This document shows positions 3,383 through 6,918 of a stretch of DNA of 64,000 bases, in pieces. The notes below the pieces were generated by a model. It had not been told where the DNA came from. It was given only the letters and a program-made list of their open reading frames with translations, and searched no databases. This DNA comes from Escherichia phage vB_EcoM_C2-3. The stretch is taken from sequence record OK076929.1; one strand, 5' to 3'. Within the stretch, counting starts at the first letter, position 1. The number at the start of each line of letters is the position of its first letter. A program made the position numbers and the translations under genes.

Positions 3383-3412
3383 GTTTACAAACTCTTGGGA
3401 GTAGAGTATAAT
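3383..3412 (+). promoter_or_regulatory. early promoter (GTTTAC, 18 bp, TATAAT) with inverted repeat around -10
   Basis: gtttac 3383-3388, tataat 3407-3412, gggagta/tactccc repeat. Confidence 0.5.
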
Positions 3413-3456
3413 ACTCCCACGGATTATAAAACCCTTAATTAACTAAAGGAAATGTT

Positions 3457-4050
3457 ATGAACACACTGAAGAAAATTGTTGAGTTTATTCGCACTAAACT
3501 TGGTTCTGCTATGGCTAAAAATCTATCTGTTGAAGAACAGTATACTGCTGCGGCAGCAAAACTACTTGATAAGATTAAAGATCTAAAAACTGCTTCTGTT
3601 AAATCTATTAATGAAGAAAAGCGTATTCGTGAACTTATTGTCGAAAAGAATAAGCAGGCCGAATCAAAAGAGCGTGAAATTCGCAAGCTTCTTTCGGAAG
3701 GTCAAGATGTAACAATGCATGCTAAACTTGGTTTACTATATCGTCGAACAGCTGAGCAGTTGACTACTAAAGCTGATGGTTATGCTGAAATGCGAATTGA
3801 AATCGCCAAGAAAGTAGTTGAGTTAGATGATGCTCGCCAAGAACTTGCAGTTAAATTGGAATATATCCGTGAAACTCGTGCTGCGAATGCCCTTGGAATT
3901 AGTACTGCTGATGATGTAGTTGAAATTGCAGCACTGACTAAAGTTGATATTGAAGATACTCTTGCTCGAGTTGAAACCTTTAATGGCAATATTTCTGGGG
4001 TTGAAACTACCTCTGCTGATGTTCAGGAATACATTAATTCTCTGAAATAA
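3457..4050 (+). CDS. hypothetical coiled-coil protein (197 aa)
   Basis: ORF track; highly charged, heptad-like composition. Confidence 0.55.
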
Positions 4051-4056
4051 TGATAA

Positions 4057-4076
4057 AGGGGCTTCGGCCCCTATTA
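4057..4076 (+). terminator. hairpin (ggggc-ttcg-gcccc), weak T-tract
   Basis: UUCG tetraloop stem directly after stop codon; short U-tract. Confidence 0.4.
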
Positions 4077-4092
4077 CTTGGAGTAAATAGGA

Positions 4093-4701
4093 ATGAAAAT
4101 GCAAAGTGATTTCAATTCAATGTTTGAAGAATTCCAAAGACAAGTTGATGTTCCAGACCAATTATTAAATGCTCTTAAACGTATGGCAGAAGGACGTAAT
4201 TATTATTGGGGTTCTTCATATGAAACTGATGAAAGTCTTTCTGGAAGATTTTCTAGAGGTAAAAAGTCTTTAATACGTCCTGGAATACTTATTAACAGTA
4301 TTGAATCAATTCATTTATTAACATGCGATTTTGATGTTGAATTTACTGATTTTGTTTCTCCTGAATGGACAGTATGTTATTTAAACGACGATTATGATTA
4401 TCTTGGCGTTTATAGTTTAAGTGACGCATGGTTTAAACGTAATTTACAAAAGTCAAATTTATTCTATATTGATACTACGGTAAAATTTCAGGGCAAGAAA
4501 TATTTCTTTACTCTTATAGTTGATTCTGAAACGAAGCATGAAAATAAACGTATTCTTAGTAAAAAGAATATCTTAACTATTGTTGATGATCTTTTTGATA
4601 AATTCGTAGAAAATCCCAATTTTGAAAGCGATTTATTACTAGAAAAATTTGTTAAGGAATGTAGAGAATATGTCAAAACCATCACTATACCTTCCAAGTA
4701 A
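4093..4701 (+). CDS. hypothetical protein (202 aa), first member of tandem family ending in FVKECR motif
   Basis: ORF track; C-terminal KFVKECREY motif shared with next three ORFs. Confidence 0.55.
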   Translation: MKMQSDFNSMFEEFQRQVDVPDQLLNALKRMAEGRNYYWGSSYETDESLSGRFSRGKKSLIRPGILINSIESIHLLTCDFDVEFTDFVSPEWTVCYLNDDYDYLGVYSLSDAWFKRNLQKSNLFYIDTTVKFQGKKYFFTLIVDSETKHENKRILSKKNILTIVDDLFDKFVENPNFESDLLLEKFVKECREYVKTITIPSK

Positions 4702-5062
4702 ACCGTTGAAGTATGAATTAAAGCGCCAGCTAATTCCTACTGATGTATTAGTAGGTCCTGTGACAGCTGTATCATTTATAATCCTAATGATTATTGGAAT
4801 AGTTATAGATGTTACTACTGATATTGAATCAGACGCAGTATTTCTGTTAGTATTAATTCTTCCATTAGTAGTTCCATTTTTATTAGTACCTGTAAATTGG
4901 GTAGGATACTGGTATCAAGGAAGACATTATCGTAAACGCGTACGCGAATGGAAAGCTCAGTGTAAAAAGATTAAAAAGGAACATCAGCTTAAACTTGCTG
5001 CGTATGAATTTAATGAAATTATGAAATTTGTTAAGGAATCACGATGCAAAAGCCAAAACTAA
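4670..5062 (+). CDS. hypothetical membrane protein (about 130 aa), tandem family
   Basis: Start moved to ATG 4670 after AAGGA SD; hydrophobic core; C-terminal FVKESRCK. Confidence 0.5.
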   Translation: MSKPSLYLPSKPLKYELKRQLIPTDVLVGPVTAVSFIILMIIGIVIDVTTDIESDAVFLLVLILPLVVPFLLVPVNWVGYWYQGRHYRKRVREWKAQCKKIKKEHQLKLAAYEFNEIMKFVKESRCKSQN

Positions 5063-5406
5063 ATAAAGTCAAATATTCGTTTCCAGAGGCACTATTAATT
5101 CTTGCCATATCAGCATTTGCAGCTCTTGCAGGTAGTCTTATTGGATTAATGATTGACTGTCTTATTTTAAACATCGACGGCACAGTAAATATAACAGAAG
5201 TTTGGAGTGAGCTTTGTTATACTAAAATTATTTCATTGTTTTCATTCTTTGGTATCATTTTATATTTTCATTATGATAATTTTAAAATAAATTGGCAAAG
5301 AAAAAAGGATTACAAAATACAATTAAAAGAATATAATAACTACATGTCTTATATTGAAAAAGAATCAATGGAAGAGTTTGTGAGTGATTGCAGGAAAATT
5401 AAATGA
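5044..5406 (+). CDS. hypothetical membrane protein (120 aa), tandem family
   Basis: Hydrophobic segments; C-terminal EFVSDCRKIK overlapping next start. Confidence 0.5.
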   Translation: MQKPKLNKVKYSFPEALLILAISAFAALAGSLIGLMIDCLILNIDGTVNITEVWSELCYTKIISLFSFFGIILYFHYDNFKINWQRKKDYKIQLKEYNNYMSYIEKESMEEFVSDCRKIK

Positions 5407-5891
5407 TTTTAAAAACTCGCTGGTATGATTTAGATGATGGAGATGATGGCATTCCAGTTGATAGAGTTGATTGGAATGGCTGTTCCGAAGATATGAAAAA
5501 TTTGTTGATTAGGGAGTTTAGAATGGGATATCAAGCAGTTAAGCCATCTACTGTAACAGACGATAAATTCGTTTGTATTCAAAACGGTCGTGCTAAGTTA
5601 ACGAACGCTGAATGGTTTACGGATAAGAATATGCTTCTGTGGTATATCATTAGTCTTCCTGCGTCATCATTCGTATTTTACTTCTTTGGAAAAAATCCAA
5701 TGGACAGAATAGGAGATTGGGCTCTTTGTACTATATTTGTTAATATTTTTACTGCAGCAATATTATCCGGAATATGGTGTGTGTTCATTGAAATGCCATG
5801 GCGGTTACGCAGACAACAAAAGATTTTTGATGAAAAGAAATATGCTCAAAATTTAAATAACTTTATCACTGAATGCAGGAAATTAAAATGA
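5403..5891 (+). CDS. hypothetical membrane protein (162 aa), tandem family
   Basis: Hydrophobic segments; C-terminal NFITECRKLK; ATGA overlap with upstream stop. Confidence 0.5.
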   Translation: MILKTRWYDLDDGDDGIPVDRVDWNGCSEDMKNLLIREFRMGYQAVKPSTVTDDKFVCIQNGRAKLTNAEWFTDKNMLLWYIISLPASSFVFYFFGKNPMDRIGDWALCTIFVNIFTAAILSGIWCVFIEMPWRLRRQQKIFDEKKYAQNLNNFITECRKLK

Positions 5892-6328
5892 AAACACTAT
5901 CAGCTGGTATTATCTTTATGACAGAAGATAGAGATTTATTTATGGGTCGGGTTACTGGTTCTCGTAAGCCTGGAATGATGGCACATCGCTGGGATATTCC
6001 AAAGGGCCGCGTAGAAAATTCTGATTTAAGCGCACTAGATGCAGCACGAAGAGAATGCTTAGAAGAGACTGGTTTTAGCAATTATAATCCAGACCTTCTA
6101 GAAGACCTAGGTGTATTTAAATATTCTAGTAATAAAGACTTACAGTTATTTTATTATACGATTCCAGTAGAGCATGAGATGTTCAGAAATTGCTATTGTG
6201 AGTCTTATTTTGAAAATAAAGATGGCGTTATGATTCCAGAGATGGATGCTTTTGCTCTTATTCCTCGTACTCAGTGGCAATATGTGATGGGTCCTTCACT
6301 TTACCGAATAATGAACAACCTCTTTTAA
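5888..6328 (+). CDS. nudE: Nudix hydrolase NudE
   Basis: Nudix box RRECLEETG; position immediately upstream of e as in T4; start moved to MKTLSAG. Confidence 0.8.
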   Translation: MKTLSAGIIFMTEDRDLFMGRVTGSRKPGMMAHRWDIPKGRVENSDLSALDAARRECLEETGFSNYNPDLLEDLGVFKYSSNKDLQLFYYTIPVEHEMFRNCYCESYFENKDGVMIPEMDAFALIPRTQWQYVMGPSLYRIMNNLF

Positions 6329-6859
<531 letters not shown>

Positions 6860-6863
6860 AGTT

Positions 6864-6894
6864 GTTTACTTTCTCCTAGAATTGTGATAGTATA
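6864..6894 (+). promoter_or_regulatory. early promoter upstream of denV
   Basis: gtttac 6864-6869, tagtat -10 about 18 bp downstream. Confidence 0.45.
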
Positions 6895-6918
6895 TTCACA
6901 GTTACTTGGAGGGATAAA

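Follow-up and report, generated by a model that had tools for sequence, protein, structure and literature searches.

We analysed 64,000 nucleotides (nt) of Escherichia phage vB_EcoM_C2-3 (sequence record OK076929.1); this whole stretch is referred to as the window. The analysis centred on four consecutive genes, e.5, e.4, e.3, and e.2, and on a short peptide motif that their products have in common near the C-terminus. The window represents a Tequatrovirus: positions 3400–6900 were 97.5% identical to Shigella phage Sf21, and at least 80% of this segment was covered in 495 phage records. Comparison with the annotated T4 record gave the plus-strand gene order e.6, a hairpin, e.5, e.4, e.3, e.2, nudE, e, and denV. 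The initial annotation of the window correctly located the four genes between the tRNA cluster (11 tRNA genes, 245–1262) and e (6365–6859, plus strand). They are orthologous to the T4 genes, with approximately 77–96% identity to T4-type copies and the same order between e.6 and nudE. In an older T4 entry (GenBank L13089), e.2–e.5 are named msp7–msp4, and the whole gene set runs from msp3 to msp8. The segment between the tRNA genes and e is regarded in T4 as 'hyperplastic', consisting of fast-evolving genes of no known function.

The following features all lie on the plus strand. A conserved coiled-coil gene, e.6 (3457–4050), is located directly upstream of e.5 and is followed by a G+C-rich hairpin, AGGGGCTTCGGCCCCT (4057–4072); T4 record L13089 and phage ASO78A have its counterpart marked as a putative stem-loop or terminator. 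Gene e.5 (4093–4701) encodes a soluble protein of 202 amino acids (aa; PHROG 2607, PF26876). The e.4 product (4670–5062, 130 aa) is a predicted hairpin of two transmembrane (TM) segments, at residues ~28–46 and 57–75, with a basic cytoplasmic C-terminal tail; its start is ATG 4670, as in T4, not TTG 4649. The e.3 product (5044–5406, 120 aa) is likewise a predicted two-TM hairpin (residues ~17–35 and 57–75). The e.2 product (5403–5891, 162 aa) has an N-terminal soluble part of ~75 residues, predicted TM segments at residues ~77–95 and 103–121, and a short, basic tail with the motif at its end. The next gene, nudE (5888–6328), encodes a Nudix hydrolase (Pfam NUDIX, E = 1.8e-13) and is not a member of the motif family, although its initiation region falls inside the e.2 motif.

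As the initial annotation noted, three of the four proteins have long hydrophobic segments: two of ~19 residues each were found in e.4, e.3, and e.2, and none in e.5. The termini of these three proteins are basic and their loops acidic, so by the positive-inside rule they would form N-in/C-in hairpins with the motif on the cytoplasmic side. The four proteins belong to four different PHROGs without assigned function (2203, 2330, 2604, and 2607), and homologs of e.5 carry the precomputed Pfam accession PF26876. Scans against NCBIfam and a Pfam set without PF26876 yielded no above-threshold match for any of the four, and nothing above threshold was found in Pfam for 22 diverse TM relatives. Searches of solved structures with the single sequences of e.5 and e.6 gave no match.

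The motif, Φ-E-x-F-[IV]-x-x-C-R-[KR], lies near the C-terminus of all four proteins, with Ser replacing Cys in e.4. The corresponding peptides are KFVKECREY in e.5 (codons for F-V-K-E-C-R, ttt gtt aag gaa tgt aga, at 4648–4665), KFVKESRCK in e.4 (F-V-K-E-S-R, 5027–5044), EFVSDCRKIK in e.3 (F-V-S-D-C-R, 5377–5394), and NFITECRKLK in e.2 (F-I-T-E-C-R, 5862–5879), all on the plus strand; the last two peptides are followed immediately by the stop codon. Among the 230 six-frame open reading frames (ORFs) of at least 40 aa in the window, the strict form F[IVL]xxC[RK] occurred solely in e.5, e.3, and e.2. Three of the 121 plus-strand ORFs of at least 60 aa had it within their last 20 residues, compared to a mean of 0.04 (maximum two) in 2000 shuffles. 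The three carriers are neighbouring ORFs, to which e.4 adds the Ser variant as a fourth. ORF calls, motif scan, and shuffles thus confirm the initial observation of four consecutive ORFs with a common C-terminal motif. The description of these ORFs as ending with the motif is exact for e.3 and e.2; in e.5 and e.4, 11 and five further residues follow.

The genes are tightly packed. There is no intergenic DNA among e.5, e.4, e.3, e.2, and nudE, the sole hairpin is the one after e.6, and promoter-like matches did not exceed the shuffle expectation (18 vs 15.5). The initial annotation proposed that a string of the form gaatgcaggaaa(a)ttaaaATGA encodes the C-terminus, supplies the Shine–Dalgarno (SD) sequence of the next gene, and overlaps stop with start. 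This string and the ATGA overlap are present at e.3/e.2 (5403–5406) and e.2/nudE (5888–5891) but not at e.5/e.4 and e.4/e.3. The latter two overlaps measure 32 and 19 nt, and these are therefore not termination–reinitiation junctions. The next ATG is 22 nt from the motif for e.5, 17 nt for e.4, and 26 nt for both e.3 and e.2. As for the SD sequences, those of e.3, e.2, and nudE were indeed found inside or beside motif codons. The SD of e.3 (AAGGAA, 5033–5038) coincides with the K-E codons of the e.4 motif, the last base of which (5044) is also the A of the e.3 ATG. The SDs of e.2 (AGGAAA, 5392–5397) and nudE (AGGAAA, 5877–5882) coincide with the R-K codons of the e.3 and e.2 motifs, respectively, and each lies within the upstream gene, 5 nt before ATGA. 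Junctions e.5/e.4 and e.4/e.3 share 16 identical nt; junctions e.3/e.2 and e.2/nudE share TGCAGGAAA. In the window, motif and SD coincide because there is no intergenic DNA between the genes. The e.3/e.2 and e.2/nudE overlaps resemble the ordinary ATGA translational coupling of phage operons, but such coupling does not apply to the other two junctions and leaves the conserved peptide unexplained.

The E-C codons of the e.2 motif form the nudE start annotated in T4 (MQEIKMKT.., ATG 5873), which has no SD. ATG 5888, used by other annotations, is the more plausible start, given the ATGA overlap and an AGGAAA located 5 nt before it.

Relationships among the motif proteins were assessed in 10 GenBank and 47 IMG/VR loci around e.6 orthologs; ORFs were clustered by BLAST, and cluster profiles were compared using hhalign. 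The 64-kb window and the 5-kb flanks of e.6 in the other phages were scanned. The initial interpretation of e.5, e.4, e.3, and e.2 as one tandem family produced by repeated duplication was not upheld: e.5 belongs to a separate soluble family, and most pairs were alike over the motif only. In a four-way alignment, nothing was invariant other than Met1, the motif Phe, and the motif Arg. Smith–Waterman comparison against shuffles was significant for e.4–e.3 (z = 5.4), marginal for e.3–e.2 (z = 3.2), and gave no match between e.5 and e.4, e.3, or e.2 (z = 0.1–0.75). The hhalign probability for e.4–e.3 was 78–85% over 53–58 columns and <30% after motif trimming; a PHROG cross-match linked the two at E = 0.0019. 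Since e.4 and e.3 also have a common N-terminus (M-x-K-P-x-L) and the same architecture (predicted N-in/C-in two-TM hairpins of 120–130 aa), they are probably paralogs. The e.3–e.2 and e.5–e.2 profiles (the latter with a Dhaka-type e.5 profile) aligned over 12–13 motif columns only. When the motif was trimmed, no cross-family pair among e.5, e.4, e.3, and e.2 reached 30%, and every comparison involving e.4, e.3, or e.2 remained below 45%. When it was kept, probabilities between TM families reached 94% (e.2 with tm112), 87% (e.3 with tmKana), and 79% (tm112 with Ktm124), and a juxtamembrane P-[AW]-R-[LIV]-R was common to e.2 and TM proteins of other genera. The tie between e.2 and the other motif proteins is mainly the motif. 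The initial annotation also considered similarity restricted to the nucleotides of the ribosome-binding site (RBS). Most pairs were indeed alike over ~10 residues only, but the similarity is at the protein level and is not an RBS footprint.

The soluble e.5-like proteins encoded after e.6 were homologous over 140–180 columns, with probabilities of 97% for T4-type vs Kanagawa-type and 96% for Kanagawa-type vs Moon-type; with the motif removed, these were 94% and 93%, and homology still extended over 150–180 columns. The T4-, Dhaka-, Kanagawa-/Marfa-, and Moon-type families aligned mutually along most of the sequence. For Biquarta, the link was weaker, and the RB43-type family reached a probability of at most 34%. 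Because this long homology persists without the motif, we take e.5 to be an old orthologous family of its own, unrelated to the membrane proteins beyond the motif. At 13–21% identity, the invariant positions of the e.5 family alignment were M1, N98, F186, C190, and R191 only, the last three being motif residues. When 1.84 billion representatives were searched exhaustively with the e.5 profile using HMMER, 18 relatives were found, all from T4-like phages save one false positive (P0074), with no bacterial relatives among them; every genuine full-length relative examined ended with the motif. P0074 is a highly repetitive protein of 927 aa with 12 short stretches matching the e.5 profile and looks like a low-complexity artefact. 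Among 22 diverse TM motif proteins, Met1 and the motif Phe were the only invariant residues, and Arg was nearly invariant.

Across the 58 loci, downstream of e.6, the motif was found in all members of at least 20 BLAST-distinct clusters, whereas ~100 other clusters lacked it. It spanned at least 11 genera of the Straboviridae (Tequatro-, Mosig-, Dhaka-, Gapriver-, Kanagawa-, Marfa-, Moon-, Ishiguro-, Biquarta-, and Pseudotevenvirus, plus loci L042–L045, which resemble Enterobacter phage PG7 and whose genus assignment is unconfirmed). The family-weighted consensus was Φ(-3)-E(-2)-x-F-[I 63%, V 22%, L 15%]-x-x-C(82%)-R(90%)/K-[K/R], and Arg or Lys followed the Cys position in 100% of families. 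In the e.4 lineage, the motif Cys was replaced by S, I, V, or M while the remainder was kept.

We then considered at which level the motif is conserved. In 101 unique motif instances, the Phe codons were TTT (70) and TTC (31), and the Cys codons were TGT (43) and TGC (42). All six Arg codons were in use (AGA 33, CGT 25, AGG 16, CGC 8, CGA 5, and CGG 5), with Lys encoded by AAA at the Arg position in nine instances. Since Arg codons of both the AGR and the CGN type occur, many instances have no SD-like purine run. The distance from motif to stop was 0–25 residues, amounting to 5–25 codons in several families, and in some families (s109, Biq263, and K159) the next ORF began 30–80 nt downstream, with no overlap. 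The nucleotide conservation and fixed start distance expected of an RBS or RNA element were not found; in the window alone, 17–26 nt separate the motif from the ATG. Because codons drift synonymously, the distance to the stop varies, and an overlapping downstream gene is sometimes absent, the constraint lies on the peptide: selection on the amino-acid sequence, not on an SD or the RNA, holds the motif. The notion that it is built into the gene junction is accordingly not retained, given the AGR/CGN variation and the motifs that occur without an overlapping start, up to 25 codons before the stop. A RegA or other RNA operator and nascent-peptide stalling at termination were both rejected on the grounds of variable stop/start distance and synonymous drift.

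We rate slightly better than even the reading in which e.5, e.4, e.3, and e.2, accessory proteins made early by T4-type phages, are largely unrelated to each other and have one C-terminal docking or assembly peptide in common. The conserved positions -3, 0, +1, +4, and +5 would fall on one face of an alpha-helix, and residues 180–196 formed a helix in the low-confidence AlphaFold2 (AF2) model of e.5. Given this spacing and the model helix, a common docking or assembly helix would be the most economical explanation. In the membrane proteins, it would end the basic cytoplasmic tail behind the N-in/C-in two-TM hairpin; in e.5, it would end the soluble domain. The soluble e.5, which is always present, and a variable set of membrane-hairpin and small soluble proteins may in this way all dock onto one partner, or assemble with one another, on the cytoplasmic side of the inner membrane. 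Candidate partners are the adjoining e.6, the motif proteins themselves, or a host protein.

Short peptides at or near the C-terminus of otherwise unrelated phage proteins, more conserved than the remainder of the protein, are known from tails that dock onto a common hub. Examples are the tails of T4 gp43, gp33, and gp55 that bind the gp45 sliding clamp, as well as bacterial clamp-binding and SSB-tail motifs. The motif described here is unrelated to these in sequence, its carriers are accessory membrane or soluble proteins and not replication or transcription factors, and its docking function is putative. As the most conserved feature of at least 20 families of this kind in at least 11 genera, it offers an experimental handle for a common partner. 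A limited literature search on e.2–e.6, nudE, PF26876, and PspA in T4-like phages identified no relevant paper, and in that search we found no earlier description of the common motif, its spread across genera, or its link to e.6; the genes themselves have been known since the T4 genome was sequenced.

Several points weigh against a docking helix. Motif instances were gathered by a regular expression, which makes the logo circular at its four defining positions; cluster membership, defined by BLAST, is independent of it. The AF2 model of e.5 is poor (predicted local distance difference test score, pLDDT, of 58) and does not discriminate between an exposed helix and one packed onto its own domain. 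A single conserved Cys could point to chemistry such as metal binding, redox activity, or modification, and the e.4 lineage does without this Cys. Finally, in Biquartaviruses and RB43-like phages the 5 kb scanned contained a single motif protein, which means that assembly of motif proteins with one another cannot be a universal role.

A rather unlikely alternative to a docking peptide is pure common descent, in which all motif proteins would derive from one ancestor and the motif would be the slowest-evolving remnant of the fold, packing intramolecularly without a common partner. The chains of weak profile similarity among TM families, P-[AW]-R-[LIV]-R in several TM proteins, and the near full-length alignment of several e.5-like families are in line with such an ancestry. 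However, no similarity outside the motif was detectable among the soluble e.5-type proteins (~150–300 aa, mixed alpha/beta in the model), soluble proteins of 80–110 aa, and two-TM proteins, and motif trimming removed nearly all cross-family signal. A fold remnant is also unlikely to be the top conserved element across such different architectures.

A more specific proposal concerns the upstream neighbour, e.6. A motif-bearing e.5-like gene was the first gene after e.6 in 55 of the 58 loci, the three exceptions being frameshifted or truncated ORFs. The pair of e.6 and an e.5-like gene was seen in every genus sampled and was kept in differing neighbourhoods, for example beside nrdD in Aeromonas and RB43-type phages. 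The e.6 profile aligned colinearly (1–144 to 1–146), although weakly (E = 0.18–0.85), with Vipp1 chains, and one of nine e.6 orthologs matched PF04012 (PspA_IM30) at E = 5.3e-4. An hhalign comparison of e.6 with E. coli PspA, using an approximate PspA sequence, gave no match. The AF2 model of e.6 was a long helical hairpin (pLDDT ~90), and in a Foldseek search with this model Vipp1 accounted for all 10 of the top 10 matches. The e.6 product is probably a PspA/IM30/Vipp1-like protein of the ESCRT-III superfamily.

Members of the PspA family work with small membrane partners, such as PspB and PspC with PspA in enterobacteria and LiaI with LiaH in Bacillus. The locus resembles these systems in that small membrane proteins with cytoplasmic tails are encoded downstream of e.6, a probable family member. 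At E ≤ 1, Pfam models of PspC-like and LiaI-LiaF-like TM proteins gave no match to e.4, e.3, e.2, or 19 other diverse TM members. It is conceivable, if improbable, that the motif is a handle linking a PspA/Vipp1-like, ESCRT-III-type e.6 to interchangeable adaptors, namely e.5 and one to four membrane-hairpin or small proteins, in a membrane-remodelling or membrane-protection module whose cassettes are gained and lost at the motif repeats. Should e.6 be PspA/Vipp1-like, its pairing with the motif genes would point to an unrecognised membrane-directed module in a well-studied phage.

It is quite unlikely that the motif serves as a chemical or regulatory tag, for example as a site where the Cys binds metal, undergoes redox chemistry, or is modified, as a degron recognised by a host protease, or as a site of processing. 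The Cys in 82% of families, the adjacent Arg or Lys in all of them, and a position near the C-terminus like that of many degrons would suit such a tag. In addition, [IV]-x-E in the copies of Tequatro-, Mosig-, and Dhakaviruses resembles the consensus of the T4 prohead protease gp21, L/I-x-E. Set against this, the e.4 lineage dispenses with the Cys, and a lone Cys cannot bind metal by itself. The label 'sulfurtransferase' on some e.3 and e.4 homologs was discarded, as no rhodanese or sulfurtransferase match was found in Pfam or NCBIfam. We also rejected a gp21 cleavage site, since Glu occupied +3 in 39% of families only, with Y, L, M, N, or S elsewhere, and mimicry of the FtsZ tail or a ClpX tag, a resemblance with different spacing.

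The copy number and composition of the motif genes varied among phages. The number within 5 kb of e.6 ranged from one (Biquarta- and RB43-like phages) to five (Moonvirus and the PG7-like L042–L045). Phage T2 (L061, 1600–1720) has no e.2: its e.3 ends in ..EFVSDCRKLK, in which the e.3 motif meets an e.2-type tail inside the repeated TGCAGGAAA, and e.3 leads in register into the nudE start, whose ATGA is kept. Likewise, no e.2 ORF was listed for locus L015, where e.3 has the same ..CRKLK tail according to the ORF lists. By approximate tblastn counts, ~50 phage records contain e.3 (at least 60% identity) without e.2. In the Dhakaviruses L023, L025, and PSD2002, it is the e.4-like gene that is missing. 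The join at the Dhakavirus e.4 position, which may reflect a deletion or an insertion, lies at a 13-nt repeat, GAGGTTC(AA/GT)AATG, comprising the SD and start of the next gene; in phage dhaeg (L004, 2900–3460), GAGGTTC..AATG is common to the e.5 tail and the e.4 motif/start region. These precise losses of e.2 and e.4 indicate that even tightly overlapped genes are removable with the operon intact. The part of the initial cassette idea that stands is thus the precise loss of genes at repeated junction DNA, and the part that does not is duplication within one four-member family. As the SD and start of each downstream gene lie in the last codons of the upstream gene, short direct repeats would arise at successive gene ends, and recombination between them would delete, and possibly duplicate, whole genes in frame. 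Such recombination would account for the copy-number differences between phages.

Two records deserve mention with regard to e.2 and nudE. In the T2 record, nudE is given, apparently in error, as one coding sequence of 972 nt that extends through e. In the T4 reference, a 1-nt deletion and, ~80 nt away, a 1-nt insertion disrupt e.2 (NC_000866, 67475–67960) by creating a stop; the gene is annotated as 102 aa, and the motif-coding 3' part is back in the original frame. Most relatives, the window included, have an intact e.2 of 162 aa.

One could suppose from such losses that the gene-end sequences are themselves kept as short patches of homology for recombination, like promoter early stem-loop (PeSL) cassettes or the 'linker' sequences of lambdoid phages. 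PeSL-mediated shuffling has been documented in T4-type phages (PMC2839356; PMC4122927). The precise absence of e.2 in T2, and apparently in L015, with a hybrid e.3 tail, that of e.4 in several Dhakaviruses with a hybrid junction, and the range in copy number would all fit a recombination linker, and the likeness to PeSLs extends to repeated short sequences around accessory genes of the hyperplastic region whose recombination removes whole genes. We nevertheless think a linker function very unlikely. Junction identity is short (9–16 nt) and is not kept between genera, the motif DNA of RB69 e.5/e.4 differing at many positions, and the amino acids are kept while the nucleotides drift, which is the opposite of a DNA homology patch. 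PeSLs are intergenic and combine a sigma-70-like early promoter and a stem-loop terminator, whereas the repeats in the window are coding (motif, SD, and start) and conserved as amino acids; PeSL identity was rejected because there is no intergenic DNA between e.5 and nudE. We read recombination at the repeats as a consequence of alike gene ends, not as the cause of motif conservation.

The least credible account is the one proposed initially, in which the genes are tandem duplicates of a translationally coupled cassette and the C-terminus is a footprint of SD and stop/start signals: SDs in or adjacent to motif codons, two ATGA junctions, the junction repeats, and the probable paralogy of e.4 and e.3 speak for it, but the codon data largely refute it, with synonymous variation at all four defining residues, an SD that shifts between K-E and R-K codons, motifs without gene overlap, conserved F and [IV] codons (TTY, ATH/GTN) that play no SD role, and an e.5 non-homologous to the others beyond ~13 columns.

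Some source labels of homologs are unsupported: 'sulfurtransferase', 'DNA primase', and 'host specificity protein', attached to homologs of e.3, e.4, and e.6, are supported by no Pfam or NCBIfam model. We also observed a second tandem family at related loci, with no member in the 64-kb window. It consists of three to six consecutive small soluble proteins (65–100 aa) ending in W-[VF]-S-S-S-x-x-C or WxPSSC directly before the stop codon. The family was detected in Mosig-, Dhaka-, Gapriver-, Kanagawa-, Marfa-, and Moonviruses, for example in RB69 (L003, 3231–4026), in dhaeg (L004, 3691–4701), and in loci L007–L009 and L011 downstream of the e.3-like gene.

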